DNA of 64,000 nucleotides from Biomphalaria glabrata (taxonomy: Eukaryota), in contig NC_074716.1 in the NCBI RefSeq assembly GCF_947242115.1, forward strand, positions 24,112,637 to 24,176,636, in the 5' to 3' direction. Below, one piece after another: positions 10,672-54,773 of this stretch. Position 1 is the stretch's first letter, and each line of letters opens with the position of its first letter. A model generated the notes under the pieces. That model ran no database searches. It worked only from the letters and a program-made list of their open reading frames with translations, and was not told where the DNA came from. The translations under genes and the position numbers were made by a program.

Positions 10672-10994
10672 TCAATACTTCATCATAGTGAACACCACAT
10701 GGTACCAGCTGGGCCCCAGTTCCAATGTGCTGCAGGCTATGGGATACATGGTGTCCATAGATTGGCAGAACCTAAAGGCCTTGTTGATTGCTGAAGTTGT
10801 CCTTGACATTTCCTCTGAGGTCAACCCTAGACTTCTGAAGGTCTCTTCATTGTTCTCTAGGAAGCTGACTATATTTGACAGCCGCAGCTTCAGCAAAACT
10901 TCCAGGTCCAAAACAGGCTCCACCAGCTCATAGAGAGAAATAAGCACCAAAAGAGTGGCCAAGTATTTTTGGATGTTCTGTTCAGCAGTGCTTC
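10672..10994 (-). CDS. PARP4: Candidate terminal exon (MVP-binding-region-like): ...YLATLLVLISLYELVEPVLDLEVLLKLRLSNIVSFLENNEETFRSLGLTSEEMSRTTSAINKAFRFCQSMDTMYPIACSTLELGPSWYHVVFTMMKY*
   Basis: Resembles the human PARP4 C-terminus ('LIATMLVLQFIRTRL...YPSICPRLELGNDW'). Ends with TGA at 10672-10674. The 5' boundary is uncertain. The acceptor chosen at 10994-10996 is phase 1, whereas the upstream giant exon ends in phase 0, so intermediate exons are probably missing. Confidence 0.45.
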
Positions 10995-11402
10995 CTGTTG
11001 AATTGTATTCAAATGAATTTCAAGACTAGATCAGACAAATCTAAGGACTTTAGGACTTAACCGAACAAACTTGATAAGTTAGAACAATCTTACTAGTCCG
11101 AAAACTGATTAAGAAATAAGCATTAACTTTAATTTAAAAAAAAAAAGTTTAATCCTCTAGACCAGTGTTTACCGAATTGTGTTAGGTGGACCACTAGGCT
11201 GTATAAGGTGTTCCACAAAACTAATGGAGTAATTAACAAGTAGGCCACCAAATAAATGAATCTCCAAGTAAAATGCAGGGGAAAAAAAGATTTGTATAAG
11301 TTCTTGTTAATAAAATAAGTTCTAAAACATCAATTTGAACTTTGAACTGTTCTATATTCTGAATCTAATTTGAAACAAAGTTCCCCTTTCAGACCATGCT
11401 GT

Positions 11403-11650
11403 CTGCAGGGTAGATAATGTTAAGGTCATCTCTTTCTTTGGCTAACATTTAACTAGCAGGGTGTGATATGGCCAGCACAACCACCTACCACCTTTATTTC
11501 CCCCACTAAAGTCAGGTACCCATAAGAATTGGGTGGACTCAAGGGCTCCCTAAAAATCCTGAAATTCAAAATCCCAGCCTTCACCCAAATTCAAATGCAG
11601 GACCTCAAGTTCAGAAGCCAAGCACTTAAATACTCAGCCACTGCGCCCCA
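11403..11650 (-). mobile_element. tRNA-derived SINE, copy 3
   Basis: Reverse-complement match to the SINE family (ggccagcacaaccacc...cccataagaattgggtggactcaagg...). Confidence 0.75.
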
Positions 11651-12719
11651 ATTGGAAACAAGAGATACAATAAAATGATTTCAGGTTGAGTTTTTCTCAA
11701 GAGCATCAAAACATTGTAAAACAAGCTTTCTTTTTTCACTTCAGTTTCATACAACTTATTTCTAAGGAACAGGATTTTCTTATTTTGTTGCAACAAAGTC
11801 AAGGTCTAGAAACTGGCTTGACGTAACATCAATATAAGAAATCAGATTTTTATGTATAGATATATCTATATATATTTTTAAAAAGTTTTATACTTAATTG
11901 ATGTCTTAATTATTTTTTTAATTTAAAAAAAAATAGAAAAAAAAATCCAAACTATAATAAAAGGAAAGTGTTCCACTAAATACTCAGAATGTGCAAAATG
12001 TTTTGTTAAGGACAAGTTTAGGAAACACTGCTCTAGACGAATTGTGAGTCGGACTCTAGATCTATTAATTTTTTTCATATATTCTTATAAATATACAGTT
12101 GAAATAATATTCAGAGTTATCCTCCAATAAATTTACTAACTTTTATTATAGTTCTACATATCCTGAATAAGGTGCTTACATCATTAGTTATCAAGCATCT
12201 AAAAATGGAATTAATTTGTTTTCCAACAATAACTGAATGTTAAAGGACAATATTATTGTTGTTTGTAAGAACCATGCAACTTCTCTAGCTACCATTTATA
12301 TCAGAATTTCGATAAGATCAAAATATCATCATGCACCAGCTAACATGTGGGGTAAGCTTTTTTTGATAACATAATAAACAAACAAAACAATTAATGAATA
12401 ATATGCTAACAAAAATTAATGAATAATATGCTAAGTTTTTTTTTTCTATGCCATACCAAGTGACTTGAGTCCACTTTGAATGAGAATATGTTGACATTGT
12501 CCACTATTGATTCCTAGGAGTTGGTCAAGTGTCATGCCAAACTGCCAGCTACCATCCTGTTGGAGGTTTGAGGACAAATAAAAGGTGGACTTAGAAGTAA
12601 TAAGAGGTTTACCATTTGACTGTGACTACAACATAGGTCTAGGCCTAGAGTAAGCTACAGAGACAAGGAACATTAGAATTAGCTTACATTCTGAAGAGAC
12701 TACATAGATCTAGAAGTAA

Positions 12720-13600
12720 TTGTGTGTAATGGAGTTTAAGTCTGAACTTACAAATGAGGTCATTCAAATTAGAAATAAAATAGGAGACAGCGTAGAGTCT
12801 TCTAGAGACTTAGGCGATCTAGCATTTGTAAGCCTCCATGCACTAAGGCTCCGTACTGGGATTAATCCTTTACAGCAAGGTCCATTTATCTGGCAATGGT
12901 CTGCCTGTCTCCGTACAGAGCGAGACCCCAGCATGCACCAGTTCTGTTTCAAGACTAGTCGTATCTTTGAATGTGTTTCTAAGCACACTGCAGTCGTACA
13001 GGATGTATGTAACTGTCTCGTCTTCCTCGTAGCAGTGTCGACATCTGGGATCGTGATTCTCTCGCGAAATAGGCTCCTATCGGACAGCGTCCAGTGCGGA
13101 ATCTTGCCAAGATTTCTTGCTCCTTTCTGTCTAGCTGCCACCATTCATATTTTCTGTTTGGGCGTTTGAGAACATTACAGACATCCCGTCCCTTGCTGCA
13201 ATGGTCCCAGCTTTGTACCATTTGGATTTGATCCATTCACAAATCTGAACTTTTGCAGTCTCGTATGTTTGCGGCTCCTCTGGTGGGTCTAAAAGCGTTC
13301 CTAGCTTCGCCAAACTGTCGGCCCTCTCGTTTCCTCTGATTCCACAATGCGATGGATCCCATTGCATCACCATACGTACCTGATATTTCCTTTCTGGGCG
13401 CTCCACGTACGACAGTTTTTGCCAGTTGTGTAGGCCATGCCTCTGTGCTCTCGAGATCTTGCAGGCAAGAAAGTGTTTGTAAAAAGAGTTACATTGGCCG
13501 GTGCCGCAGTTCCTCCTCAATACGTCTTTCAAAATGCTGCAAGGCATTCTTGATTCCTTACATTTCCGCAACGTAATTGCTTTCTCCTGCACATGGGCCT
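12720..13600 (-). mobile_element. Degenerate non-LTR retrotransposon 3' portion (RNase H domain plus C-terminal Cys/His motif), with frameshifts
   Basis: Minus-strand ORFs give ...VRMVMQWDPSHCGIRGNERADSLAKLG (RNase H signature W.PsH.GI.GNE.AD.LAK). A shifted frame gives ILARFRTGRCPIGAYF..., the RLRTGHTRLN-like motif of LINE ORF2 C-termini. Confidence 0.7.
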
Positions 13601-24799: not shown

Positions 24800-24812
24800 A
24801 TCCAATACATAC

Positions 24813-37931: not shown

Positions 37932-38066
37932 CTTCAATGAAATGAAAAAGTTTAGTTACTGACATCATGCTATATTGAATGTAATAGTTTTTAGTGACAG
38001 ACTATTATGATTAATTATTGTATTAGTTTGTTATAGGAATGAAATGAAAATGTTTCTTTTTCTTAC

Positions 38067-39746: not shown

Positions 39747-39934
39747 CTTACACCAAAAGTAAAGATTCTGGTATGTAAAGAGTTGGCACGAGCATGTTTC
39801 ATCACCAGGTCATTATTGTTCAAATGGCCATCAGAAATGAGACAAACATTTCTTTGTGTTTTTTGGTTTGGGAGCAGATAAAGTGGCCACAGTGGACGGA
39901 TCACGTCAGTATTGCCACAGGTGGCCATAGAGAT
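39747..39934 (-). CDS. PARP4: PARP4-like exon 20 (vWA): ISMATCGNTDVIRPLWPLYLLPNQKTQRNVCLISDGHLNNNDLVMKHARANSLHTRIFTFGV
   Basis: Human 'ATPTMGNTDFWKTLRYLSLLYP...NILLVSDGHLQDESLTLQLVKRSRPHTRLFACGIG'. Donor AG|gtgagt. 188 bp. Confidence 0.75.
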
Positions 39935-40267
39935 CTTGGTTAATAAAAAAAGTAATGCAGATAAGAAGCATGATTCTTATTAATTTGTTTTTTTAAATAA
40001 CATAGTTTGGATTTTCCTAACCAAAAGAAAATAAGGCAAAATAAAATATCATTCAATTAATTTGTTTTTCAAAAACAAAAATCCGATTTAAAGATAATTG
40101 CTTTAATCAAAAATATTAATGAGGACATAATAGAAAAAGATGAAAAATGAATTAATTCAAAGTAGACGAGGTAATAAAAACATTTAGGTTTATAATTATT
40201 TTCATGTTAACAATTTTCATTCATAAAAAACAAAACATAATAAAGTATTCATTAGACAAAGTATGAC

Positions 40268-40341
40268 CTGGATGAAATGATCTGCTAATTCCAGATTTTC
40301 TTGAGTTTTCAGCTTTGGAGCAGGGAACAGCTCTTCATAAT
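40268..40341 (-). CDS. PARP4: PARP4-like exon 19: (D)YEELFPAPKLKTQENLELADHFIQ
   Basis: Human 'GYKELFSYPKHITSNTMAAEFIMS'. Acceptor tattgcag|AT, donor CAG|gtcata. 74 bp. Confidence 0.65.
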
Positions 40342-41286
40342 CTGCAATAAAAACATTGAAATAAATTATTTGAGCATACATTCATACATGTGTTGCTTCT
40401 TTCAATATACAATTTATGTTTACATTTGAACAATGACATTACTGTATCATATTTTTCTTATATAAGGTAGGTGTTTCTTTGAAATCAATCTCTCTATTTG
40501 AGTAGGTAAATTTAGATGTTTTGAGGGAATATTACGCAAAAAAAGATGAATCATGGACACACAAAAATGAAACTACTGATTCTGTTTGTGTTTCTGAGTT
40601 CTTATTTACTTTTAAAAAAAATTAGTTTAAAAATGTGGCACAGAAAACTAAAAGAATCTGTTGGATTTTGATAGGCTTAATAAATTCATAGAACCAGGAT
40701 GCAGAAGGTTCTGAGGATGCTTTTAAAAAACTGTTCAAAGATCAAAAAGGTGATTGGGGTATTTCTAAAACATACAAATTACAACAATATTCAAATTAAA
40801 GAGGAAGAATGTCAGACATTAACTTTTTTTTTTAAACACACAGTTTTATAACGTATTAGTAACAGAGTATTCTATTGCCTGAGTTTCAGTGTTTAAAATC
40901 ATAAATTTGTTTAAAGTGTCCACTTGATGGGAGAATGTGTGCAGGAGAAATAGCATTAACAATTATTTAAGTGGATTAAACCCTACATATTTAGCCATAT
41001 ATTAGAAAACTGAAGAATTATTTCCTTTGTCGGTATTTAACAAAATAATTAATTACCAGTAATTAATTGAATAATTGGCTTTTTTATTTTTTAAATGATT
41101 CTTGTCCTGTCTATACTAATGAATAATTCTGTAAAGTTTGAACTTGATCCGAGAATGGGCATAGGAGAAATAATAAATACACTTTTTACCAGATAGACAA
41201 ACAGAGTTGATTTAAGCTTTTTAAAAAACTATCACAACTAAGAAAAAATACAGAAAAGTATTTTTTAAAAGCTAATTTTTTTTTAC

Positions 41287-41473
41287 CTGAACCAAATTTA
41301 ACAATATTAAAATGCCAGTTTGGCTGCAAAGATTTCAAAATGAGAAGTGCCACTTTCTTAGCTTCATTTAAAGCTTTGTCCTTCATGGAGTTTGAAACAT
41401 CTAACAGAATAATGATTTCTCCTTCTGTACTTTCCTGTGCTTCAAACTCTGGGAAAAATGTCAGCATACAAGC
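41287..41473 (-). CDS. PARP4: PARP4-like exon 18 (start of vWA domain, MIDAS DxSxS): ACMLTFFPEFEAQESTEGEIIILLDVSNSMKDKALNEAKKVALLILKSLQPNWHFNIVKFGS
   Basis: Human 'ACMLVFQPDLDVDLPDLASESEVIICLDCSSSMEG...VNIIQFGTG'. Acceptor attccag|GCT, donor TCAG|gtaaaa. 187 bp. Confidence 0.8.
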
Positions 41474-41960
41474 CTGGAATATTGCAAGACATTATAGAAA
41501 AACTATGTTTGTTTAAATGTTAAAGCACTTCAATAGTTGGGATTATGAATGAATGAATGATTTAGAAGTGAAACTACTTGGGACAAAGTGTAGAATTTAT
41601 ATCTATAGACCAATCATTTGTTACTCAGTAAAACATTTGTCCAGATTGTATTAGATGAGACCCTGCATACAATGGTAGGCCTAAGCAATGTTTTTAGAAA
41701 AAAGCTTGAACTATTGTACTAAATGGTTCTAGGGCTCACCCAGAACATGTCATATTTAATTAATTATTCAGTACAATTTCACTAGTCATATAATGTTGTA
41801 TTTGGCCAATTAATTTGTATGATAGGAATCTACATTAGAGTTTATTGTCAAAATTCTTTACAGGCACTTAAATTAAGCACTTTATTTCTCAGCACCAAAA
41901 TATAGTATTAATCCCATCTTATACTAACATGCATTTTGAACAATTGACAAGCTTGGTTAC

Positions 41961-42095
41961 CTGGTCCTGTGATTCAGGAAGTCGTTCCACCCACATTCTG
42001 GGCACATGGATTTCAGCCAGACCAATCAGCAACTGAAATCCTGACCCAAAGTTCTGCCTACGGGACATTTCAACATAGGCCTTGGTGGATGTTTG
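41961..42095 (-). CDS. PARP4: PARP4-like exon 17: QTSTKAYVEMSRRQNFGSGFQLLIGLAEIHVPRMWVERLPESQDQ
   Basis: Human 'SSGFSLHIGLSAAYLPRMWVEKHPEKESE'. Acceptor gtctag|CAA, donor CAG|gtaacc. 135 bp. Confidence 0.7.
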
Positions 42096-43006
42096 CTAGA
42101 CATTAAATTTGAAGGGAAAAAAAATTAGTAAACTCTTTTTTTTTTTTCTAGCGTTTTAATTATTTTACTTTTATCCACAATTGTTACACTGCTATAATTT
42201 TTTTCACAAACCACTCACATACCTTACATACATTGACTTTAAGTATTTTGTAGACTTAAAATAATAACTTTTTTTTCTCTAAAAAGGCCAAGCTGCTGAT
42301 TTTCTAAATGTAATTTCATACTGCTCTTTTTCCTATAGCTTAAAAGAGGACAAACACAAAGGTAACATATTTTGTCCTCACTGGCATAGAGAAAAGTAGC
42401 TGGCAGCAGATGGCGTCTGAAAGAGACAGCTGGAAAGCTCTCACCAACGTTGCAGGACAAACATTTGAGACCCAAAGAAAGCCTTTGATGAAAGCAGGCA
42501 AAGACCATGATAGAAAACAAATAAAAACATCAGAGGACAACAGCTTTGACTGAATTAGATGTGGCTGAATATACAGGTAGCAAAGGTTTGCATGGTCCTG
42601 AAAAATACTGCCCTCATTCTAAATCTTTGGAATTAAAGACAATGACTTATACCCATTGCTATACACACACTACTTAAAACACATTACTGCACACAGAACA
42701 ATTTCAACATTCATAACCACTTAATAATAATAATAATAATTTTATTTATAAAGCGCTGTTAACAAACAAAATGTAGGCTAAAGGCGCTGTAACAACATTA
42801 CAAACAAAAACACGAGAGCTAAAATGACAGTTAATCTAAAAAAGTTTTAAACAGATAGGTCTTAATGTTCTTCTTAAAAGTGGTGTAGCATGTTGTCTGT
42901 CTGAGATCAATGGGGAGTGAGTTCCAAACCACTTGAGCCTAAGTGTTACATTGTTACTCTGGGTTGCATGTATATGTGTTAAGTAAAACATATTCAAATG
43001 GCTGAC

Positions 43007-43120
43007 CTTAATCTTAACTTTGTGTGTAGGGCAGTGCAAACTTCTGATTTCAAATGGCATTTCTAAGGCAACTTGGACTGTTGTATTAGCAGCAGCCATT
43101 TTGTGACTTTTCAGTTCTTC
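43007..43120 (-). CDS. PARP4: PARP4-like exon 16: EELKSHKMAAANTTVQVALEMPFEIRSLHCPTHKVKIK
   Basis: Acceptor aatggcag|GAA, donor AAG|gtcagc. Human 'SFSLTMSIEMPYVIEFIFSDTHELKQKR'. 114 bp. Confidence 0.65.
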
Positions 43121-43362
43121 CTGCCATTATAAAAATACAGAAACAAGTTATGAAGATTCTTTTCTTTGATGTTAAGTCAGTGATTAAGCAGATATCCTTT
43201 ACAATTTGTTAGATAATGCTTTTATGTTGTCTGTGATAAAACAATATTAATAATCAATGTAAGATAATGCTTTCAAATTAATTGTGATAAAAGAAAATTA
43301 ATAACAAAGCTAATGACAGATCAAAGTCTAACAATCCCAAATTCAATTCTTATGTTTAGAAC

Positions 43363-43527
43363 CTGAGTAGAGTACTTCAGAGCTGAGTCTTCTTTCCATG
43401 GAGCTACAGTTGCTGGCAGTATAAAACTGATCAGCTCATCCTCCACTTGCAGCTCAGCAACATAAGTTATTTTGATCAACACACAGGCACTGGGAGGAAG
43501 ATTGCCCACACTGACTGTAAACACATC
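43363..43527 (-). CDS. PARP4: PARP4-like exon 15 (VIT): DVFTVSVGNLPPSACVLIKITYVAELQVEDELISFILPATVAPWKEDSALKYSTQ
   Basis: Human 'DVFTVSVGNLPPKAKVLIKITYITEL...MPATVAPWQQDKAL'. Acceptor ttcaag|GAT. Donor CAG|gttcta is weak. 165 bp. Confidence 0.8.
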
Positions 43528-43873
43528 CTTGAAGAATATTTAAAAAAAACAATGTTTATACACAATGGTTTTGTTTTAAATAAGAATCTGTTACAAAATA
43601 ATTGTAATTGATAACAAAACAAAAACAAATTTCTTGAAAAAAATAAATAGACATGGTGAAAATGACATTGACATACTTCTTTGTTAAATGCCTGGTAATT
43701 GATTTTAAATAGCATTATTCAAGCACCAATTCTTTTAAAGAGTAAAGAATACAACATTGATGAATTGTTTTTAAAAATCTCACTATTGCTAAAAGTACTT
43801 TAAAATAGTTTGGAAACAACCCCCCCCCCCCCCAAAAAAAAAAACCAACAGCAAGACTAATTGAGTTTCTCAC

Positions 43874-44098
43874 AGGTGTTTCTTCATCCTGGTCCATTAA
43901 GTATGCTCCATGACCTTGACTAATGGCTTCCTTGTACTCCTTGTGGGCCACTTCTTTTTCTTTCACCTCACCCACTATGTGCTTGCCATTGATGAAAGCC
44001 TCAAAGCCGCAAACAGCAGCAGCGTCATCAAGAGGAAACACATACTTGGCCTCAATAGACTCCCCAGTGTTGTTGTAGTACTCCTGAAGCACAACCAC
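43874..44098 (-). CDS. PARP4: PARP4-like exon 14 (VIT domain): VVVLQEYYNNTGESIEAKYVFPLDDAAAVCGFEAFINGKHIVGEVKEKEVAHKEYKEAISQGHGAYLMDQDEETP
   Basis: Near-identical to human 'PIEAKYIFPLDDKAAVCGFEAFINGKHIVGEIKEKEEAQQEYLEAVTQGHGAYLM'. Acceptor caccag|GTG, donor CCT|gtgaga. 225 bp. Confidence 0.85.
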
Positions 44099-45249
44099 CT
44101 GGTGATGAAGAGAAGAAATAGAAAACAGGACTCAAATAATGCAATGAAAAATCATTTATTTAAAAGGTAATAAAACAAATATTGAAGTAATTCATTTAGT
44201 TAATATAAATATTTTTGCAAGCAATGCCAAAATAAAAAAAATGTTCCTAATACCCATTCAAAGCAATAATTTAAAAAAAAAAGGTTCTTGTCTATGCCAG
44301 TGAGAGAAAAGTTAAAACTGCGATGGTCTTTAAAAAGTGCTCAAGGTGCTCCTAAGGTAATCCACAAATAAGATCATCTCTTTCATATGGTCATCCAACA
44401 CAAGGGTTAAGTGTCCTAGCTAGAGCAGTTGTGGAACATTATTTGCCTGGTAGTCTTGCGAATGTATGCACATTCTAGACTGCAGGCACTTTAGATGGAA
44501 GTTTTCATGAAGCTTCAGATGTTTCCAAATGAGCAACCAGGCATGGAAGTCACTACTGCATGGTTGAGAGGCTAGTACGCTTGAACTTGGCTAACTACAA
44601 AGGCAGCATGAGGTTCGACACCCGACTCAAGCAGAGTTGTGCCTAAAGGCAGCACAGAAAACTTTCTCCCAGATACCCCCTTCCCCACTGGTCCACAAAT
44701 GAGATTGGACCATAGCGCTCTGAGCATGCTATAAGCATGAAAGTAGAGCTGTATAAAAGCTATAATTTATTTATTTATTTTATTATTATAGACAATTGAT
44801 TTGTTGGCAGTTAGAGAGGTCCTGACCTAAGCCTGACAGTTATCTATTTTTCTCATCAGTGATGTGTCCTGTTCCAAGAGTCTCTCAATGGAATTTACTT
44901 AGCTCCACAATCACTGGGAAGGACCATCAGTGGTAGGCCACTTTATGTAACTTGGCAGCACAGTAATCTTATCTACATAACTAAATACTAAAATAAATAC
45001 TAATCATCATCATTAAACTCCATAAACGTTAAGACTTCAGAGATTCAAATCATCTCTAACAATAAGCTAATAGCGCTGCTAATAGATGCAAGATTTCAAG
45101 AGAAACTATTTAATCTATTTAAGGATATAGCAGTTGGGCCACCGACATTTTTTTTTTTAATTTAAGTTACATATGACAGTACTATCACTAAAGCAGAAGA
45201 ACTGCTGCTGATGCCCATCTATTCCAGAAGAGCCACTGCTGACACCTAC

Positions 45250-45380
45250 CTGAGCTGCAAGATCTATGAGTTTAGCTCTAATGTGTACTCCTCTCAGTTC
45301 AACTTGGGCATTTTTATTCCCAACAAGACCTGGAACTACTTTTAACAATGGATCTGATACGCCAATCACATCATTGAGGG
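45250..45380 (-). CDS. PARP4: PARP4-like exon 13 (pre-VIT): (T)LNDVIGVSDPLLKVVPGLVGNKNAQVELRGVHIRAKLIDLAAQ
   Basis: Acceptor aaaatag|CC, donor CAG|gtaggt. Human '...LVPLEDVHIKGRIIDTVAQ'. 131 bp. Confidence 0.7.
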
Positions 45381-46875
45381 CTATTTTAAGGGAGAGCAAA
45401 AAGAAAATAAAAAAAAAAGAAATTTAGGAAATTGTTATAGAAGTATTGTGATTTATTGGTTTAACTTTTTGTATCATTTAAGGGCTATTTTTAGGGTGGG
45501 GGAGCAATAACAAATATAGAGAAAAAGAAAATTTGCTATACAAATATTTAATTTATTATTGGTTTATTTTTCACTGTCATTATCGATAATGTAAATAATA
45601 GTAATAGTTGTGAAAGATTTAGAGCATTTGACTATTAAGGAAAAGATTCTTGATACATTTTTAAGATTTGAGAATTTTACAAAAGAAGGCTTAGTTTTAA
45701 GGAAAAAGTAATAGGAAATTTATATCTAAAAAAGTATGTTTAACTGTGACTTTTATTTGTTAAAAAGTTCTATAGATTTTGAAAAAACAGCTAACAAATA
45801 AAATTTAAGTTGAGTCCTCTTCTATCAAACTTGTTAGTCAAAGGTACTGTAATTATAACTGAGCAATAAAGTACTGATAATACCATCAAATATTCATTAA
45901 TGTACACACTGGTATTAAAATTTGGACAGAACCATGGGAGATAGCAAAAAAAAAAAAAAAAATATCTGTGTGAATATTGCCTTATATTCCTGCTAGAATA
46001 ATTTGACTCAATTAAGAAATATACCAGCTATATGAAGAACCCTCCATTGTGACGGAAATAAAAAGGAACAGATTACGTTGGGCAGGTCAACTTAAAAGAA
46101 TTCCAGTGAACAAAGGAGCAAAGATTTTTCACCGGCAAAAACCAAAAAGCAGGTACCCCATGAATACAGTGGCTTGATGACATAGAGGCAGATCTACAGC
46201 AGCTAAAAGTCTGATCAAGGAGACGTAAGGCACAAGATAGATTTGAATGGAGAGATGTGCTAAAGCAGGCCAGAGCCCTCCATGGTATGTAGTGCCACTG
46301 GGATGATGATCATGATGATTAATTTTCTGTTTTTCAAAGATAAAAGGGATGTGTGGCTGAGACATAAACCGCTTGTTAATTTGTTAACCTTATAAGGGGG
46401 CTTGAGTTCAAATCTCAACTTGACATTTACAAAATGACTAAGTGCAACAAACAGAATGAACATTAGATGACTTCTGAAATTAACTATCAGGTTAAAGCAT
46501 GTAAACATTTATTTGACAATGAAGTCAAAAAACAATAAGATAAATTTGTAGCATACTCTCCAAGAACCACATATGGCAAAGAAAACTAAACATTGTAGCT
46601 GGATAGAATAAGGCCTTTACATAAGAAAACCATCCATTAGGATAGCCTTAATGACATGCTAAACTCCAATACCTATGATGAATTAAAACTTAATTCTCTA
46701 ATCTTTTTAAACTTTATAAACTAATCAATTATCAATAATTATATTTTGTTTTTGAAGTTTTATTAAAAATAAAAGATACATAAACTTTTCCTTTTTTTCT
46801 CTGATTTATGATGTCATATTATCTTATGAATGAATATGCAGATTCAGTTTTATTTTAGACATTGGATGAAATTAC

Positions 46876-47020
46876 TTGTGTTCTCCAGATCATCGCACAA
46901 AAGGTTGGAGTCTATTTCAGTTGTTTTGGGCATAGATTTCACTTGATCTCCAGCTACCATAAATTCAACTAGGTAACGGACTCTTTGCTGATTCACTGTG
47001 TACACCACATACTCATCATG
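46876..47020 (-). CDS. PARP4: PARP4-like exon 12: HDEYVVYTVNQQRVRYLVEFMVAGDQVKSMPKTTEIDSNLLCDDLENT
   Basis: Acceptor ctgtag|CAT, donor ACAA|gtaatt. Human 'DDEFVVYKTNQVKMKYIIKFSMPGDQIKDFHPSDHTELEE'. 145 bp, ends phase 1. Confidence 0.75.
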
Positions 47021-47208
47021 CTACAGAAAGAAAGTGTAGATCAACTGAAAACATTTCAAATTCATAAATAATGTAAAGTTGTTTTTCAAAAATCACAATT
47101 TTTAAATTTCATTTTATTTTTATTATTGTTTTGAATCAGCATAAATATAGTTTCCATGAATTGAATGTTTTGAATTTACAAGATCAAAATAAGTGGAAAA
47201 TAAATTAC

Positions 47209-47455
47209 TTCAAACAAAGATGATTTGTCACATTTTTTGCTCACTCCATGAGTGCTATTGTATCCTGGTGGTGGCGCCACAAGACTTGTTTCATGTGTAG
47301 TGTAATCTTTGATTTGTCCGAGGGCTACCTCATTGATAAGTAATAAACGTGATCCTTTGGTTTTGCTTGGTGTAGAGTATTGAACACTGGTACTATCAGA
47401 CACAAATTGTTCAAACATATATAACAAAGGTTTCAATAAAGGTTGATAATTGAAA
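47209..47455 (-). CDS. PARP4: PARP4-like exon 11 (catalytic core): (N)FNYQPLLKPLLYMFEQFVSDSTSVQYSTPSKTKGSRLLLINEVALGQIKDYTTHETSLVAPPPGYNSTHGVSKKCDKSSLFE
   Basis: Matches human 'GTRLLLICDVALGKCMDLHEKDFSLTEAPPGYDSVHGVSQT...DFE'. This is the PARP signature. Acceptor aatatag|T, donor GAA|gtaatt. 247 bp. Confidence 0.8.
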
Positions 47456-47613
47456 CTATATTGTTTGTTAACAGCAGTATATACATTTTATTTTTATTAA
47501 ATTATAATAATAATAAAATGGAACAGCTCAAGACATTATAATTAATTATTAAGTATAATTAAACATAAGCATAATTGATTAATTAAAGGAGGTATAATTA
47601 AACATAAGCATAC

Positions 47614-47712
47614 TTGAAATCACTAGCAAAATAAATGCCACATCCCAGAGATCCCTCATCAGTTCGACTTCCTCCCATGTCGTCCACAACAGCTTTAGGT
47701 AACAGTAAGCCT
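47614..47712 (-). CDS. PARP4: PARP4-like exon 10 (catalytic domain): (R)GLLLPKAVVDDMGGSRTDEGSLGCGIYFASDF
   Basis: Acceptor gtgtttag|A, donor TTCAA|gtatgc. Human 'RGLLLPKVVEDRGVQRTDVGNLGSGIYFSDS'. 99 bp. Confidence 0.75.
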
Positions 47713-48037
47713 CTAAACACAATTTTTAAAAGCATTTGATAAATTGTTAGAAATTGTAAAAATCTGAGTGTTTTTTTTTAAAGGATAATGTCAACAAAGG
47801 TATTTTAGAAATCATTGAATATAAATAAATTCATACTTTTAACTTTAAACCATATTACATCTGCATGTCAAATAAATCTAGTACAAAAAAAAAACAAAAA
47901 AAAGTCTTCTTTATCACTTTCCCTTACTTATGACATTGTTGAGGTTCAACAAAAAAAAAAGGTTTGTTAAGGCAAACATATGCATATGCCATACATTTTA
48001 ATACAAAACAATATGCATCATTAAGAAACAAGAGTAC

Positions 48038-48178
48038 CTAGATAAGATACCAACAAAGTTCTCAATTTTAGATGAATGAAATAGCAAACGTTTTGGTTCA
48101 ATGTCAAATCTGAAATCAATATCTTCCACTTGTCTCCAGACTTCAAAAACATTGGATATCAGCAAATCTTGGTTTGGA
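48038..48178 (-). CDS. PARP4: PARP4-like exon 9: (S)PNQDLLISNVFEVWRQVEDIDFRFDIEPKRLLFHSSKIENFVGILS
   Basis: Acceptor ctactttag|T, donor CTAG|gtactc. Human 'SPVDVLQIFRVGRVNETTEF...RPLLHGSPVQNIVGILCRG'. Phase 2 to 2. Confidence 0.75.
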
Positions 48179-48420
48179 CTAAAGTAGAATAAAAGGGTTG
48201 AGCAAGTTTTTTAGTATCTAATAAATGATGTGAAACAGAGAATAAACAATTATTGTAATAATAAATTTTCTTAATTTCTAGATGCTATATGAACATGCTC
48301 AAAAAAAATAAATCTTTTAGTTTGTAAAAATGTATAATTCTGGTTATCTAAGCTATTATATTAAAATAATAAAGTTGCAATATTAATAAAAATATAAAGT
48401 ACTCCTTTCAGAACTTGGGA

Positions 48421-48647
48421 TCTATAGGGTAGATGATGTAATGGCCATCTGTTATTTGGTCCACAGTTAACAAGAATGTTATGTGGCCAGCACAACGACC
48501 AACCAACTTGACTTTCCCCAACTAATGTCAGGTACTCATAAGAGTTAGGTGAACTCAGAAGACATCACAAAAATCCCAAAGTTCCACTTTACTGAAATTG
48601 GAACTAGAGACCCCTTGGTTTGTAAACTAAGCAACCAAACCCCTGAC
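48421..48647 (-). mobile_element. tRNA-derived SINE, copy 6 (in the PARP4 intron between exons 8 and 9)
   Basis: Reverse-complement SINE body (atgtggccagcacaacgaccaacc...ggtactcataagagttaggtgaactc). Confidence 0.7.
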
Positions 48648-48825
48648 AATATTTAGAAGTTCAGGGAAATTTCTAGTCAAACTTGATGTGGCATTTCAAA
48701 ATGAAAACAAAACTGTGATAGAAAAAGTGTAGCAATACTAAAGCCTCTACATGACTTGAAAATCTGACATTTAATTCAAGATCAAGGAATGACATTACAG
48801 CTGATTTGGTGAGTTTATAACTTAC

Positions 48826-48980
48826 CTATCCATGGAAGATCTGATTAAATCTTCAACGTCTTGTCTCTCACTGTTAGCCAACTGTCTGATCTGACATCTA
48901 AGAGCAGCATACTTGGCGTCTGTGAAACTTCTTTCCTGAAAGTTGGTCATCTCACTTGCCGAGATCATGTCTTTCACCAA
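48826..48980 (-). CDS. PARP4: PARP4-like exon 8: LVKDMISASEMTNFQERSFTDAKYAALRCQIRQLANSERQDVEDLIRSSMD
   Basis: Acceptor gtgttcag|TTG, donor GATAG|gtaagtt. Human 'LIRDMVNVCETNLSKPNPPSLAKYRALRCKIEHVEQ'. Ends phase 2. Confidence 0.7.
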
Positions 48981-49073
48981 CTGAACACATGCAAAGAAAA
49001 ATTTATAGATAAAAGTTATAAATAAAAACTAAACTAGAACATAAATGTTTTTAAAGCTCTAATAAAAGCAAAA

Positions 49074-49139
<66 letters not shown>

Positions 49140-49143
<4 letters not shown>

Positions 49144-49625
49144 TTACGATCTTCTCTACCAGGCCTTCTGTAAACACTGCTAAACACAAAGCACATCTAA
49201 CACAAGAACTTGACAACAAGATTTTCAAGTAACAATGTGGCGGTTTAATGACAAATACATCAACAGCCAATAAAACACTATTGGCTTCACAAACTTCAAA
49301 TGCTTTAACACAATAGAACTCCTAAATAAACACTACAAGTTTCTCTTTCCACTCCTGGACTCGTACAGCTACATTTTCAAGGACTCACATTCTACCGCAC
49401 AGCCATTACTGACTTACTGTCCTGGACTCAACAGTCCTTTCTTACACATTGTCTCTCAACCATAAAAGCTTTCGATTAAATGACCATAACACTGGTCATA
49501 TTTGCGTGTACTAGCAGTAATGTCCCTTGTTCAACAACCATGACCTCTGTGATTCCCCTTAGTCTCGTGTGTCAGTAGGTCACACACACTTTAACCCTAT
49601 CAGTCCACCACTGGAGTTACAACAA
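49140..49625 (+). mobile_element. MITE-like repeat of about 490 bp, copy 1, adjacent to (TA)n
   Basis: About 75% identical to 63030-63535 (ctaccaggccttctgtaaac.ctgct.aacacaa...gaccataacac.ggtcatatttg...gtcacacaca.tttaacccta.cagtccaccactggag). Short inverted termini ttgttac.../...gttacaacaa. Confidence 0.6.
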
Positions 49626-50012
49626 TATATATATAATAATTGCTTTAATAAAGCCACTAAAAACCTTGATGTCATCTTTTAACTAAGTAGACCATGTGCT
49701 GAATATCTTATCTACTGGAGAAGGTTGTCTCATGTTTAAGCTGTCTTAATTTAATAGGTATATATAAAAAGTATTCACTAAAGTAATACAATTAAAAAAA
49801 TGATAAAGGTTATATATATATATTTTTCAAGCCTTTGTCAGAAATTATCAACCTAAAAACACTAAGTCTAAATGAATAGATCAGAGGAGGGTGCATAACT
49901 TTTGATAGTAGGGTGAAATGCCAAGTAATAACAATGCTAATTTGACATTTTTATTGTATTATATTGTGATAAATTGTATGTCTGTTACAAGCTTAATTAG
50001 TCAGCCATTTAC

Positions 50013-50195
50013 CTGGCACATGTCCTGTTTCTGAACACACCATTTTTTCCTTTCAGACTCTTTGATGTCTGTATTTTCATTTCTGTGTTTCAATATGGAA
50101 TAAAATTCTGAAATGAGGGACTGAATTTTAGAGTCTGAAGCTGAAACCTTCATAGCCTCTCGGATTTTAACAAGAATGGCTTCTGCTTTTTCAAC
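50013..50195 (-). CDS. PARP4: PARP4-like exon 7 (PARP helical/regulatory): VEKAEAILVKIREAMKVSASDSKIQSLISEFYSILKHRNENTDIKESERKKWCVQKQDMCQ
   Basis: Acceptor tataatag|GTT, donor CAG|gtaaat. Human 'VSKAEGILLLVKAALKNGETAEQLQKMMTEFYRLIPHKG...ADLCQ'. 183 bp. Confidence 0.7.
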
Positions 50196-50689
50196 CTATT
50201 ATAGGACAAAAAAAGGCTATTATAATTTTTACAAATAAGATCTTCTAAGAGTGAATTTATTAAAATGCAAAGCCAATAAGCTTTTAGCTTTAACAAATAA
50301 TTACCACTTTAAAAGCTACCATAGTTCAGTGAAAGTACCCACACAGACACTCCCATACATGCATGCATACATACATATAATTCTATAGAACGCCTAGGCA
50401 AAGAATCCCAAAAACAGAATACCCACAAAACTTACACTTTGACTAAGTCAAGAAATCTTTCTTCTTATATATTATCTTATATATTACAGACGTTATTTCA
50501 AAAAAGAAGATAATTATGTCCTACGCATTTGGTGTGTCAATCTAGTCATGCTTGTAAATCAATGACTTAAACTCTGCTAAGTTGTTAGTTTTCCTGGCTG
50601 ATTCAGGCAACCCATTCCATTCTCAAATGGCACTAGAAGAAATAAATGTGATAAAGCAAATCCTGCTACTGTGAAGGTCCTTATACTGA

Positions 50690-50824
50690 CCTGCTCTAGA
50701 CGAATGCTACTTAATTCACCCAAAAGTGTTGTAATCTCAGACATTGCTTCCTGCCAGATGTGTTCAACCAGTTCCTTAACATCAGCACTGCAGCCAACAT
50801 TCAATTGTGAAGATTGTGCCATCA
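50690..50824 (-). CDS. PARP4: PARP4-like exon 6: LMAQSSQLNVGCSADVKELVEHIWQEAMSEITTLLGELSSIRLEQ
   Basis: Acceptor ttgttcag|TTG, donor GAGCAG|gtcagt. Strong match to human 'VSDLVEMIWAEALGHLEHML'. 135 bp. Confidence 0.75.
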
Positions 50825-51326
50825 ACTGAACAATAACACAAGAAATATATTAATTAAGGTAAAAACAAAAATTTAAACTACTATTTTTTTTTTACTCTAC
50901 TGATATCTAAAATGCATTGATTTTGGAGATGTAGAACTATTGAAATAAAGCTATACACTAATGTAGTAGAAAAACAAACATTAGTTGTTTTATTTATATT
51001 TTAAGTGATATTTCGTTTTTACAATATATTGCATGGTACTATTAATAACATCCAAGAGCATAAGCTTCTGGGTTCAAATTGGCTAATATTAAATTAGTTG
51101 ATTAGGATAATAAATCTACTTTAGATAAAAAAAAGTTAAACAAAAATGTGTTCTTCTCATCTTCAGAGTTTTCTGTTTACCAGTTTTGTGGTCAGTTTGT
51201 TAACTAAGTGAAAACAAAATTAATTTTGTCTAAAACACAAAAAAAAGTGTAAAAATTTAGGATGCAAGGAAAAGAGTATAAAATCAATTTCTAACTAAAT
51301 ATTTCTACAGATTAAGACAGAAATCT

Positions 51327-51360
<34 letters not shown>

Positions 51361-51501
51361 TATGTATTATCATAAAGAGGACAAAGCATGTTGTTAGTGT
51401 TACTTTGTATTTAACATAAGAGTTTATAAGCATTTTGAACTTATTTAGAAAGCCCATTGCTTGATGTTTCAAAAAATAGGAAATATAGAGTTTAAGCTTA
51501 C

Positions 51502-51657
51502 ACGCTGAAGTTTCAGAGAACCTACTCCACGAATAGGGCCAACTTGTTTTGTCAAATCTGGTTTCTTCTTTAGTTCTTCATAGAGCATTGAGAAACAAGC
51601 TAGAGCTTGTTCTGCTGTTGGTACATACCGAAATTCTGTATTACAAATGTTACCTTT
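51502..51657 (-). CDS. PARP4: PARP4-like exon 5: KGNICNTEFRYVPTAEQALACFSMLYEELKKKPDLTKQVGPIRGVGSLKLQR
   Basis: Acceptor tttttttccag|AAAGG, donor CGT|gtaagc. 156 bp, phase 0-0. Human 'EYFENYIEELKKQGF'. Confidence 0.6.
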
Positions 51658-51958
51658 CTGGAAAAAAATAATAAATGTTAATCAGAATAATTAGCATAAA
51701 AGTGTTGAAAAATATTTTCTTTATGTTAACCAGGTAGTTAATTAGGACCAACAGTAGATAGATAGCACAATGATTTGAATCTCAATTTTGTTTTTGGGTT
51801 GAGCCATCCTTTCATGATCACAAACTTTCATATCTAAAAAAAAACCCATGAAATTCATTGAAAATGTTTTAAAATTATTAATCAACTTTAAAAATGTGTC
51901 TACTAAAGCCTGCTATCAAATAAAAATAAAAATTTAGATACATATATCTGCATCTTAC

Positions 51959-52123
51959 TTCCAAATCTTTCATGTTTCCTTGCTGATAGACAATTCTATA
52001 TAAAGATGGGCCTTTATCATTTTCTTCCTCCATATTTTCAACTGAGGTTTTTTTTGATAAAAGAATGGATGAATGAAGCTCAACAATGTGAGCCACTTCA
52101 CTTTTTGACAGCTTGTTGTAACC
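51959..52123 (-). CDS. PARP4: PARP4-like exon 4: GYNKLSKSEVAHIVELHSSILLSKKTSVENMEEENDKGPSLYRIVYQQGNMKDLE
   Basis: Acceptor ttttttatag|GGT, donor GAA|gtaaga. 165 bp, phase 0-0. Resembles human 'EAVVVELQCS...'. Confidence 0.65.
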
Positions 52124-52517
52124 CTATAAAAAAAAAAAGAAATGAAATGAATACTACTTTAATGATTATGTTTAGATTTGATGGTAGATTTTAACATTGT
52201 TATTTCAGAAATAGTTACATAATAATATATTATTGGAACCTTTAAACATATTTTTAATATTTTTATTTATTTTCAAGATTTCTTTTTCTTAATTACTTTT
52301 AATGCTAGCAGTAGCAAACAAATACTTAGTGACAGAGGATTGAGAGGATTAAGGATTAGTCCCAGTGCAGGATCATCCTTGAGTGTTGTCCACAATGGTG
52401 ATGACAATTAATCAAAAAGGACACAACAAAGTGTTTTAAAAAAAAAAAAAAAAAACTGGAATAGAAGATTGATGGAGATACACATGCTATTTCAAATCAT
52501 TAAGCTAAATAACTTAC

Positions 52518-52663
52518 AAGAAAAATACAGAACTTTGCAACTTCATAGCTTTCTTCTTCAAAATAAGGCTGGGATTCATCTCCGTGATGCCAAATCTTCA
52601 CTGATTTTGGATTAAATGGGGCTTTGGAGGCAAATGATTTAGACTTCTCAGGTGGATTTAAAG
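52518..52663 (-). CDS. PARP4: PARP4-like exon 3: (A)LNPPEKSKSFASKAPFNPKSVKIWHHGDESQPYFEEESYEVAKFCIFL
   Basis: Acceptor atcatcag|CT, donor CTT|gtaagt. Phase 1 start matches exon 2. Human '...PQDFEVAKYNTLEK'. Confidence 0.65.
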
Positions 52664-53099
52664 CTGATGATAAAATTATGAACCAAATACTTTTTAATAA
52701 ATACATAAAGTGATATCTCTTTCATATAACTCTCTTCTTCATAAAAAAGAACTTATGCCACTGAGATTTGATAGGATTTTACTTGGGTGCTATGCTTCTA
52801 GCAGAAAAATAAAATGCATTTAACTTTACAGATAGACCAATAAAGTTTTTGAATGCAGCATAAAAATTGTTACTGTCCTTAAAAACTCAGAACTTTTAAT
52901 TTGTATCCATATGCTCTACAACTAAAGCCTCCATTTTTCCTCCATAAGAAATGCCACTTGTTAATTTGAAACAATTCCTTCTTTCTGAGCTGTCTCGGAT
53001 GAAAATTTGAAGGAAGTCACTCTAGAGGTGTCATGAAAATATATATAACTATGACTGGCTGTATTTAAAACCAATTCACTTTTTTAAACAAATGCTTAC

Positions 53100-53298
53100 C
53101 TGAAATTTTTCCAGACTTGAAATCTAAAAATTTGCTCTTTCCTCCAACAATATAAGACTCTGTAGGCAAAAGTTTCTCAGCTTGTAAACAGTCCCAGATG
53201 TAATCCAGATTGAGAACTGGTAGACCATATTTGGAGGCCATTCTACATTTTGTTGACAGCTGGCATTTTTCAGGATCACTTGTTACAACAAAATGGCA
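53100..53298 (-). CDS. PARP4: PARP4-like exon 2 (BRCT): CHFVVTSDPEKCQLSTKCRMASKYGLPVLNLDYIWDCLQAEKLLPTESYIVGGKSKFLDFKSGKIS
   Basis: Acceptor catttcag|TGCC, donor CAG|gtaagc. Matches human 'CTHIILDNADVLSQYQLNSIQKNHVHIANPDFIWKSIREKRLL'. 199 bp, ends phase 1. Confidence 0.75.
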
Positions 53299-54464
53299 CT
53301 GAAATGTTGAATTAAAACTAAATAAAACTTAGCTTAAGACTGCATAAATTACAAATACTTGTAGGCTAACATAATGAATGTGTATTAATAAATACCTAGT
53401 AATTGAACTTCAGTTTCATTGCCCCCTTCCACTCAATAAGATCCCTAATAAAACGCAAGCATTAAGTATATTTAGATTATTTTTATCCTAAAAAAAATTA
53501 GAACAAGGGGCTTGGTTCTTAATCTAGCAGAGGTCAGAAGTAAACATTCCTCAGTCCACCAAGATTTGTTGTAAAACCTAGATAGATTTGGCATGTAAAG
53601 AAAAAAGGTTACTTTGCTGTCTGGGGTGTTAATTGCTTATCAACCAGTTCTGAAAGAGATTAAGACTGAAAAGACCTTCTAAGATTTGTAGGTAAACTTT
53701 TTTTTATATGGACATGAATAAAGCCTTGTAGGTGTGAAAAGAGAGAAATCTCTGATCAAATTATCATTACCACAAATCTTATGTTATGTCATCTGCATCT
53801 AATTTTCTGTGGTTGATTTGAAACATAGCATTAAGCAAAATCACAAGCTTTTTTTTAGTACATTTAGATTATTTTTATCCTAAAAAAAATTAGAACAAGG
53901 AGCTTGGTTCTTAATCTAGCAGAATCTGCTAAAAAAAATGTTGCTAAGGAACTGCATTTAGAATTTGTGATTATAATTTGGCTGAAAATCCATTGAAGAT
54001 GCAAGTAGTCATGGTTTTAGGGGTGACTATGCAGAACAACACACATAGTCTACTTAACTGCCCTATAAATCAAAATGTCTTATAAGAGATCTAAATTTAC
54101 TTTTAAAAAATACCACTAATGTAACTGCTGTTTCTGAGTAAGTATTGAACATTTGAAACACAGAAGATGTGAAAAAAAAATTCACAGCTTTCTCTACAAT
54201 CAATATAGTGGGGAAAAAAAACTTGCTGTAGGTCCTCTTTTAATAATTAAAGTGTTGATTGCAGAAGTCTGCACTACTTTGTTTTGTGGAGAGGTACCCA
54301 TTGAAAATGAGAAAAGAGTGTTCCAAGGATGTGATGATCAAAAGTGGTATTCTCAGAGGTCAGTCAAAATAATTTAAAGTTATCTCACACTATTTCTCTG
54401 TGGCACAGACTGTACAAGAGCCTACAATTTAGAGCATCAAAATAAAGTGTTAAATTCAGAAAGT

Positions 54465-54650
54465 TCTTGTTCAAAATAAATTTAGTGTTTATGTGAATGA
54501 ACAAAGTGAGTCACTTAGTTTCAGAAAGTTCTTGTTCAAAATAAATTTGGTGTTTATGTGAATAAACAAAAAGAGTCACTTAGTTTCAGAAAGTTCTTGT
54601 TCAAAATAAATTTGGTGTATATGTCAATGGACAAAGTGAATTACCTTCTT
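54465..54650. repeat. Roughly 60-bp tandem repeat x3 in PARP4 intron 1
   Basis: ttcagaaagttcttgttcaaaataaatttggtgtttatgtgaat.aacaaa..gagtcacttagt repeated. Confidence 0.8.
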
Positions 54651-54773
54651 TGTAACAATAAAACTGATGATGCCTCCATTTTCAACAATCTTCTTACGCA
54701 TCTCTAATTTTTTCTTAAAGCCTAGATTGTAACCAAAATCAGCAGCTATTTGAATTCCTTTGAATATAGCCAT
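54645..54773 (-). CDS. PARP4: PARP4-like exon 1 (start codon, BRCT N-term): MAIFKGIQIAADFGYNLGFKKKLEMRKKIVENGGIISFIVTKK
   Basis: ATG in good Kozak context (acaaaaATGG). Aligns to human PARP4 N-terminus (...KKKLQTDIKENGGKFSFSL). Donor AAG|gtaattcac. Phase 0 end. Confidence 0.7.

Follow-up and report, generated by a model that had tools for sequence, protein, structure and literature searches.

A probable PARP4 ortholog of 41 coding exons, with a ubiquitin-like exon in its linker, in a 64-kb window of Biomphalaria DNA

The 64,000-nucleotide stretch of Biomphalaria glabrata DNA analyzed here (contig NC_074716.1, referred to as the window) very probably carries, between positions 54773 and 10672 of its minus strand, one protein-coding gene, the planorbid snail ortholog of PARP4 (vault PARP, vPARP). 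The rebuilt gene model has 41 coding exons and 40 introns, all of them GT-AG and 135 to 4,339 nt long. Its coding sequence (CDS) of 7,014 nt starts with the ATG at 54773 and stops with a TGA that ends at 10672, giving a product of 2,337 amino acids (aa) with one stop in 2,338 codons, the terminal one. Along the product lie, in this order, a BRCT domain, a probable helical PARP regulatory domain, the PARP catalytic domain, a VIT domain, a vWA domain, a linker of ∼1,100 aa, and a C-terminal helical region. The original prediction for this DNA, a minus-strand PARP4 ortholog of about 40 exons with its ATG at 54773 and its stop at 10672, is borne out by homology and by our rebuild, which was done independently and without sight of the earlier exon list. 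The snail PARP4 locus is a single intact copy. The gene is not new, as near-identical B. glabrata models are already in UniProt, and the exact transcript ends of the earlier 54773-10672 model need correction.

The window is AT rich (32 to 36% GC) and holds just seven open reading frames (ORFs) of at least 120 aa in 64 kb; it is therefore spliced eukaryotic DNA. A prokaryotic reading is ruled out by this composition, the few long ORFs, and the clear spliced structure. Stop-free segments of the minus strand already show PARP, VIT, vWA, ubiquitin-like, and Ser/Pro-rich pieces. As a homolog query we used a rough concatenation of the PARP-to-vWA pieces, which matched 446 proteins at an E value of ≤1e-20. 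The best-scoring matches came from a land snail, Candidula unifasciata (71% identity), from Pomacea canaliculata (64%), and from Lottia gigantea (59%), all of them PARP4 or PARP4-like; proteins of corals, Trichoplax, and many vertebrates ranked behind them. Comparison of PARP4 proteins with the window by tblastn, a check proposed together with the original prediction, returned a strictly colinear series of minus-strand matches from 54776 down to 35840.

Exons 1 to 26 (54773..35828) were set by spliced comparison with the PARP4 proteins of Candidula, Pomacea, Lottia, and Acropora. To choose the junctions, we listed the GT (or GC) donors and the AG acceptors close to where neighboring matches end and scored the spliced peptide against the reference; a GT-AG intron was the best solution at every junction tested in this way. 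Joined, these exons comprise 3,690 nt and encode 1,230 aa with zero stops, and the product is colinear with PARP4 of Candidula, Pomacea, Lottia, corals, and vertebrates. Scanning this 1,230-aa product with Pfam identified BRCT at residues 4 to 81 (E = 5.3e-9; 36.6 bits, cutoff 21.3; BRCT_2, 29.4 bits, cutoff 27.3), PARP_reg at 303 to 387 (E = 1.7e-5; 25.4 bits, cutoff 26.8), the PARP catalytic domain at 409 to 584 (E = 2.7e-28), VIT at 642 to 753 (E = 1.4e-36; VIT_2, 7.3e-11), and VWA_3 at 888 to 1040 (E = 1.5e-16; VWA at 889 to 1037, 2.1e-10). The matches to the PARP, VIT, and vWA profiles expected of the assembled translation are thus all present, and the domains fall where they had been placed by hand, with BRCT in exons 1 and 2, the helical (below the cutoff) and catalytic PARP regions in exons 6 to 12, and VIT in exons 13 to 15. 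When the catalytic region was compared with PDB sequences (phmmer), human PARP4 (8swy) matched with an E value of 7.5e-42, PARP2 with 3e-17, and PARP1 with 4e-12. The catalytic H-Y-E residues are recognizable, since FHSS, GIYFA, and DEYVVY of the snail align with HGS, GIYFS, and DEFVVY of human PARP4. The metal ion-dependent adhesion site (MIDAS) pattern DxSxS...T...D, read in the model sequence, is present as DVSNS in exon 18, where the DxSxS motif had been reported, and as GNTD and SDG in exon 20.

All exons described here lie on the minus strand. Exon 1 (54645-54773, aa 1-43) carries the conserved ATG and the first half of BRCT; Met1 of the Pomacea protein aligns to 54773, and an in-frame stop lies upstream of this ATG within the same ORF. 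The second half of BRCT is encoded by exon 2 (53100-53298, aa 44-110). Exons 3 (52518-52663, aa 110-158) and 5 (51502-51657, aa 214-265) follow from the spliced comparison, while exon 4 (51959-52123, aa 159-213) was missed by BLAST and read from the sequence; it is phase 0-0, has a TATAG acceptor and a GTAAGA donor, and is 95% identical to the B. glabrata UniProt model A0A2C9KRH5. The helical PARP regulatory region begins in exon 6 (50691-50825, aa 266-310), continues in exon 7 (50013-50195, aa 311-371), and ends in exon 8 (48826-48980, aa 372-423), in which the catalytic domain starts. Exon 9 (48038-48178, aa 423-470) contributes the catalytic His in LLFHSS, aligned with LLHGS of human PARP4, and exon 10 (47614-47712, aa 470-503) contributes the catalytic Tyr in GIYFA. 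Exon 11 (47209-47392, aa 503-564) is also catalytic and holds SRLLLINEVALG...APPPGYNSTHGV, the former having been quoted for this region before, and exon 12 (46876-47020, aa 565-613) ends the domain with the catalytic Glu in HDEYVVY.

VIT starts in exon 13 (45250-45380, aa 613-656), has its core in exon 14 (43874-44098, aa 657-731), which holds EAKYVFPLDDAAAVCGFEAFINGKH and the previously quoted EAKYVFPLDD, and ends in exon 15 (43363-43527, aa 732-786). After exons 16 (43007-43120, aa 787-824) and 17 (41961-42095, aa 825-869), both set by the spliced comparison, vWA extends from exon 18 (41287-41473, aa 870-932), with the MIDAS motif DVSNS, through exon 19 (40268-40341, aa 932-956) and exon 20 (39747-39934, aa 957-1019), which supplies the Thr (in GNTD) and the Asp (in LISDGH) of the MIDAS, to exon 21 (38561-38660, aa 1019-1052). 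Exons 22 (38067-38237, aa 1053-1109) and 23 (37851-37931, aa 1110-1136) lead to exon 24 (37415-37495, aa 1137-1163), which holds LVHRLTARAVIRDWEDG; the motif around it presumably resembles one of the VIT-vWA protein motif family. The two further motifs quoted earlier, TQFTSFIAVEKR and LPYMGW, are located in exon 25 (36315-36416, aa 1164-1197) and exon 26 (35828-35926, aa 1198-1230), respectively, and the LPYMGW exon is conserved in Candidula, Lottia, Acropora, and fish.

At the other end of the gene, exons 40 and 41 were set by homology to the vertebrate and human PARP4 C terminus. The C termini of fish and bird PARP4 isoforms match 11016-10705 weakly but consistently (tblastn), and a profile built from 19 vertebrate PARP4 C termini gave a single match among the 2,038 six-frame segments of the window, at 11019-10675 (E = 1e-7). 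The vertebrate motif DGYWEL...GINSLG is matched by DGSWQF...GLKSLG at 12625-12457. Exon 40 (12457-12625, aa 2175-2231) thus holds the start of the region, aligned to human PARP4 from residue 1580, and exon 41 (10672-10994, aa 2231-2337 plus the TGA) holds the rest (ATLLVL...YPIACSTLELGPSW), with a Lottia counterpart at 28194-28505 of the Lottia locus; the donor past SLG is phase 1, as is the acceptor at 10994. The 163 aa of the two joined exons have a single match in PDB, residues 1580 to 1696 of human PARP4 (E = 0.002). In the human protein the major vault protein (MVP)-interaction (MINT) domain comprises residues 1562 to 1724 and docks on MVP repeats 3 to 5 (PMC12280208), and the matched region falls within this span. 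Judged from these matches, the last two exons are homologous to MINT. The earlier proposal of a C-terminal exon resembling the MVP-binding region therefore holds for the homology, but the region is split over two exons (12625-12457 and 10994-10672) rather than contained in one. Pfam gave no match on exons 40 and 41; PF26156 and PF26166, which are listed for vertebrate PARP4 matches, were unreported in the Pfam copy used.

Between the domain part and MINT lies the linker, encoded by exons 27 to 39. Exon 27 (34807-34968, aa 1231-1284), a helical linker piece located 3′ of the LPYMGW exon, was set by its conservation in both Candidula loci just past that exon (E = 3e-10 and 5e-6), and its ab initio score of 32.6 was a top one. 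Exons 28 to 39 were reproduced exactly by mapping A0A2C9KRH5 onto the window; this mapping recovered all rebuilt exons and three further short phase 1-1 GT-AG exons (29186-29124, 27367-27302, and 25488-25414). Exon 28 (32326-32407, aa 1285-1312) bridges phase 0 to phase 1, is the best 0-to-1 ab initio candidate, and is identical to A0A2C9KRH5 at 28 of 28 residues, as is exon 29 (31291-31437, aa 1312-1361; phase 1-1; ab initio score 22.0) at 49 of 49. Behind the ubiquitin-like exon 30, described below, a two-exon unit occurs three times (exons 31/32, 33/34, and 35/36) within a segmental triplication at 24700-29460, whose units of ∼1.9 to 2.1 kb each carry a pair of phase 1-1 exons. Unit A consists of exon 31 (29124-29186, 63 nt), set by the A0A2C9KRH5 mapping and its junctions, and the acidic exon 32 (28568-28657, 90 nt); unit B of exon 33 (27302-27367, 66 nt) and the acidic exon 34 (26493-26582, 90 nt); and unit C of exon 35 (25414-25488, 75 nt) and the acidic exon 36 (24813-24872, 60 nt), for which an alternative donor at 24792 is possible. 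Between the copies, exon interiors are 75 to 79% identical, compared with 85 to 92% for several intron pieces, while frame, length class, and splice sites are kept in all three. Exons 33 to 35 are absent from the second B. glabrata model, A0A2C9KRG3, which suggests that the cassette is alternatively spliced.

The cassette is followed by exon 37 (22219-22272, 54 nt, phase 1-1), which is K/R rich and holds AMKKRMSRRPRYSRRGGS, by exon 38 (21611-21715, 105 nt, phase 1-1), and by the giant exon 39 (16965-18535, aa 1651-2174), so that the succession of ubiquitin-like and cassette region, K/R-rich exon, and 1.57-kb S/P/FG-rich exon appears in the rebuild as it had been described. Exon 39 is a single ORF of 1,571 nt with an ab initio score of 71; it contains 16% Ser, 10% Pro, and five FG dipeptides, and it is probably a disordered linker. 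Its acceptor is phase 1 and its donor phase 0, as is the acceptor of exon 40. Exons 29 to 38 are all phase 1-1, so that the frame would survive the inclusion or the skipping of any one of them. The sole relatives of exon 39 in a set of 1.84 billion representative proteins are the B. glabrata PARP models (92% identity, from one match, A0A2C9KRG3; A0A2C9KRH5 is its cluster mate). The spliced product of exons 27 to 41 returned zero protein matches at an E value of ≤1e-3 in a word-prefiltered search that misses relatives below ∼50% identity; this search also failed to return the near-identical 1,924-aa B. glabrata protein with the head of the protein as the query, so its negatives are weak. Apart from ubiquitin, Pfam scans of the single 3′ exons found nothing.

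The phase of these exons was also assessed with an unconstrained exon scan, in which a codon and splice model trained on exons 1 to 26 was applied with no phase imposed. Between 34.8 and 18.6 kb, the eight sense-strand candidates with the best scores comprised seven of phase 1-1 and one transposon-like ORF; at scores of at least 15, candidates numbered zero in confirmed introns and three on the antisense strand. A naive gene finder of this type (codon log-odds and splice-site weight matrices, trained on exons 1 to 26) was rejected as a source of gene models: it overpredicted, with ∼70 exons, at a low exon penalty, and at high penalties it took the transposon ORFs at 33393-32896 and 13586-12939 as exons. 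It was kept solely for ranking candidates and for the phase test without phase selection.

The original prediction had taken it as evidence that all 38 junctions between exon 1 and the giant exon, exon 39 here, are phase compatible, with a chance expectation of about (1/3)^38. That figure does not stand, as its null is invalid: a span of ±30 nt around a junction holds 13 GT/AG pairs on average, of which ∼5 preserve the frame and are stop free, and more than one option exists at 37 of the 40 junctions. With frame-keeping pairs so abundant, phase compatibility is almost guaranteed when the reader chooses the sites. What makes the gene model right is not the chance figure but that the frames flanking 26 junctions on either side are fixed by homology, that the models of another genome agree for exons 28 to 39, and that the unconstrained scan yields a uniform 1-1 phase pattern.

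The ubiquitin-like (Ubl) domain is complete within a single exon, exon 30 (30658-30924, 267 nt, aa 1361-1450, phase 1-1), which ends in LRGG. Pfam assigns it to the ubiquitin family (PF00240) with an E value of 1.1e-16 and 60.7 bits (cutoff 25.4), covering profile positions 2 to 72 of 72, and ubiquitin chains in PDB match it with an E value of ∼2e-15. It is identical to ubiquitin at 30 of 74 positions and keeps the equivalents of Leu8, Ile44, His68, and Val70 as well as LRGG. The splice sites are strong, with a polypyrimidine tract and CAG at the acceptor, and the frame of 89 codons is intact. Compared with A0A2C9KRH5, 88 of 89 residues are identical, against ∼90% in neighboring linker exons, and this higher conservation suggests purifying selection on the exon. 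A search of the whole Lottia PARP4 locus revealed no ubiquitin-like segment, so gastropod PARP4 does not always contain the Ubl exon; this comparison across gastropods consists of Lottia alone, given that the Candidula loci end 2 to 4 kb past exon 27. In the literature searched, we found no description of a Ubl domain in any PARP4.

Tentatively, and with less than even confidence, we consider that PARP4 of the Biomphalaria lineage may have gained a genuine, constitutively spliced ubiquitin-derived linker domain, with an Ile44 patch and LRGG, beside an alternatively spliced, triplicated acidic cassette. Positioned between the enzymatic/vWA module and the MINT vault anchor, such a domain could act as an in-cis ubiquitin signal; alternatively, a deubiquitinase cutting after the Gly-Gly could release the ADP-ribosyltransferase module from the vault anchor. 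Only 74 nt past the donor of the Ubl exon, at 30468-30583 of the minus strand, we also observed a tandem acceptor (tag/ag/). Its first AG leads to a stop after 10 codons, giving a possible short isoform that ends just past the Ubl, and its second AG gives access to an open frame of 39 codons whose donor is weak. The B. glabrata models use neither AG.

A different account of these exons is that the Ubl and some or all of the cassette exons are outside the mature PARP4, being a captured ubiquitin fragment and duplicated intronic pseudo-exons that a gene predictor included. The Lottia locus without a ubiquitin-like segment would fit such an account, as would the cassette exon interiors, which are less similar between copies than neighboring intron pieces, the skipping of exons 33 to 35 in one B. 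glabrata model, and the initial homolog search with the exon 27-41 product, which came back empty. The Ubl exon, however, combines strong splice sites, an intact frame, and a symmetric phase with near identity to a B. glabrata model whose neighboring linker exons are ∼90% identical; both B. glabrata models include it, and all three cassette copies keep their frame, length class, and splice sites. On balance we regard a pseudo-exon origin as improbable. Still more improbable, in our view, is that two or more genes were falsely chained, i.e., a PARP4-like gene ending near exon 27 and one or several separate downstream genes with the Ubl, the Ser/Pro-rich region, and the MINT-like end. Such a split is made conceivable by the plentiful frame-compatible GT/AG pairs (∼5 per junction), by exons 28 to 39 having no homologs outside Biomphalaria, and by the many database PARP4 models that end near the LPYMGW exon, including a Pomacea protein that ends after the exon 24 equivalent. 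It conflicts with the fact that the MINT-like end is part of PARP4 in vertebrates and lies downstream of the head on the same strand in Lottia too, where no other gene is called between head and tail. Furthermore, none of exons 28 to 41 has a conserved start, the phase 1-1 exons 29 to 38 fit the phase-1 acceptor of exon 39 even though phase was not selected in the scan, and the B. glabrata models join exons 1 to 39 in one product.

A reading of the locus as a PARP4 pseudogene in decay is hardly credible, although its introns are full of transposon remnants and satellites and exon 39 carries a frameshift in the B. glabrata counterpart. The 7,014-nt CDS has no internal stop or frameshift, 40 of 40 introns are GT-AG, the catalytic triad and the MIDAS motif are intact, and identity to the B. 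glabrata models is 99% in the domain exons versus 90% in the linker, a pattern expected under constraint. The frameshift itself can be located: the divergent ends of the B. glabrata models (...ITFFLLKNVKHHQC and ...FFLLKNVKHHQC) correspond to the other frame of the window past a T-run at ∼17625 (∼17591-17644). The switch in these models is probably a homopolymer assembly error and not a real truncation.

Several observations nevertheless weigh against reading the locus as one PARP4 gene with the architecture given above. In the N-terminal part, PARP_reg stays 1.4 bits under its Pfam cutoff; the region aligns colinearly with PARP4 of molluscs, in which this match is weak as well. In the linker, exons 28 to 39 have no homolog detectable outside Biomphalaria, and their support consists of another genome's automatic gene model together with ab initio scores. 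The continuity from exon 39 to exons 40 and 41 rests on the open frame of the window, the phase match, and the Lottia arrangement. The inclusion level of exons 28 to 38, the 5′ end, with either the 54773 ATG or the 55671-55585 exon, and the 3′ untranslated region (UTR) are putative. For MINT, residues S1614, K1618, and R1689 of human PARP4 have been named as MVP contacts (PMC12280208); S1614 is kept in the snail, but K1618 and R1689 are both replaced by Thr, and vault docking in the snail is therefore something we infer from the human protein. Lottia also has Thr at the R1689 position. An AlphaFold2 model of exon 41 from a 13-row alignment is all-helical with low confidence (predicted local distance difference test [pLDDT] score, 66), and Foldseek with this low-confidence model found no PDB match with an E value below 6.

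The 5′ end is where the original gene boundaries need revision. Residues 1 to 30 of A0A2C9KRH5 map at 97% identity to a probable 5′ exon (exon 0) at 55585-55671 of the minus strand, which the B. glabrata UniProt models use as their coding start (MTRQPLEV...). Its donor reads GAA/GTCAGT, the corresponding acceptor (CACAG/) lies at 54788, and the frame is open into exon 1. The transcript therefore probably begins ∼0.9 kb beyond 54773, at the 55671-55585 exon, which would be either coding or 5′ UTR. Directly upstream of the ATG exon lies a 95-bp tandem array (55066-55630; six copies, 99% identity); exon 0 sits at the upstream edge of this array, and its last 16 codons recur in every repeat copy.

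By analogy with human PARP4 (PMC12280208, PMC2964712, PMC12212138), the N-terminal modules of the snail protein would engage nucleic acids or protein partners, ADP-ribose would be transferred from NAD+ by the catalytic domain, and the C-terminal domain would dock the enzyme inside the vault cage on MVP. PARP4/vPARP forms PARP clade 5A (Citarelli et al. 2010, PMC2964712). For the most part, the snail gene is of little consequence, as what was annotated by hand, correctly, is a conserved metazoan gene already in databases. That the snail keeps the whole set of BRCT, PARP, VIT, vWA, and MINT domains and an intact H-Y-E triad gains some relevance from Biomphalaria being the intermediate host of Schistosoma, and the window copy, open through the giant exon and the two MINT exons, supplies the predicted vault-docking C terminus that is absent from the frameshifted UniProt models. 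The sole mildly novel aspect of the snail PARP4 is the Ubl exon with the triplicated cassette, in which the insertion and duplication of phase 1-1 exons remodel a probably disordered linker and leave the domains untouched.

Outside the gene, no convincing second gene was found in the flanks (1-10600 and 54900-64000), which contain repeat-derived ORF fragments alone; a reverse-transcriptase-like piece, a resemblance judged by eye, lies at 58980-59270 of the plus strand. An MVP gene is absent from the window. Within the introns, an inverted repeat of ∼510 bp with 88% identity (19581-20077 and 24127-24638) brackets exons 37 and 38, and each of its arms carries a 93-bp tandem duplication. Inverted intronic repeats of such a kind can favor exon skipping or back-splicing. 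A minisatellite of 15/16 nt, GGGGATGAAGTGACC, is repeated as many as 23 times and is found in either orientation in introns 36 to 38 (20263-20614, 24715-24794, 23810-23948, and 19488-19564), and one of its arrays abuts the alternative donor of exon 36. Intron 39 contains a retroelement remnant (12767-13598, minus strand) whose ORF resembles RNase H (the Pfam RNase_H match, with an E value of 0.008, falls below the cutoff) and is 44% identical at the protein level to a copy within a Candidula PARP4 intron. Two adjacent transposon-like ORFs (...MRWSARGEVVKIV...) in intron 27 (32896-33393, minus strand) have a coding-like composition and no Pfam match. In addition, a SINE-like repeat family of ∼250 bp with 75 to 86% identity is scattered over introns and flanks (1228-1473, 1585-1765, 11401-11647, 23335-23501, 26809-27059, and 48396-48576), and a second family of ∼170 bp is found at 2226-2395, 4931-5092, 50467-50636, and 59381-59553.

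The closest known relatives of the gene are the two B. glabrata UniProt entries named "Poly [ADP-ribose] polymerase," A0A2C9KRH5 (2,001 aa) and A0A2C9KRG3 (1,924 aa), in which the chain of exons 1 to 39 runs in the order found in the window and takes in the Ubl exon, cassette exons, the K/R-rich exon, and ∼310 residues from the start of exon 39. A0A2C9KRH5 is 97.1% identical to the window product over the whole alignment, 99.0% over exons 1 to 29, and ∼90% over exons 33 to 39. With 10% of the linker differing, the window and these models probably come from different strains or from sister species. The two models start 34 aa further upstream, in the 55671-55585 exon, and end within exon 39 after the T-run frameshift, so that they lack the last ∼215 residues of that exon and the whole of MINT; the shorter one, A0A2C9KRG3, also skips exons 33 to 35. 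In the Lottia gigantea PARP4 locus (LOTGIDRAFT_119348 and flanks), the exon series from BRCT to LPYMGW is colinear with that of the snail, and the terminal MINT exon lies on the same strand ∼8 kb further downstream (head at 7356, tail at 28194-28505 of the locus, L003). The Lottia gene is compact, with ∼21 kb versus ∼45 kb in Biomphalaria, and its locus has no detectable counterpart of exons 27 to 39.

VIT-vWA proteins, such as the inter-alpha-trypsin inhibitor heavy chains (ITIH) and VWA5A, share the VIT and vWA module with its MIDAS but have no BRCT, PARP, or MINT, and the best database matches obtained here are PARP4, not ITIH or VWA5A. Like ubiquitin, exon 30 encodes a full-length beta-grasp unit with equivalents of Leu8, Ile44, His68, and Val70. 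It differs in lying midway along a 2,337-aa protein, where it takes up a single phase 1-1 exon, in not conserving Lys48 and Lys63, and in its internal GG, which is followed by LAEDQETEKQK and ∼890 more residues. Compared with human PARP4/vPARP (1,724 aa; PDB entries 8swy, 8sx1, 9bw6, and 9bw7), the snail protein is ∼600 aa longer, and its linker carries a ubiquitin-like domain and a triplicated acidic cassette that the human protein does not have. Both proteins nevertheless show the same order of BRCT, helical (a weak match in the snail), PARP, VIT, and vWA domains, long linker, and MINT, with ∼44% identity in the domain part and ∼30% in MINT. Their H-Y-E residues align, and residues 1580 to 1696 of the human protein share the motifs DGxW, SLG, ATLLVL, and YP..C..LELG..W with the C-terminal 163 aa of the snail protein.

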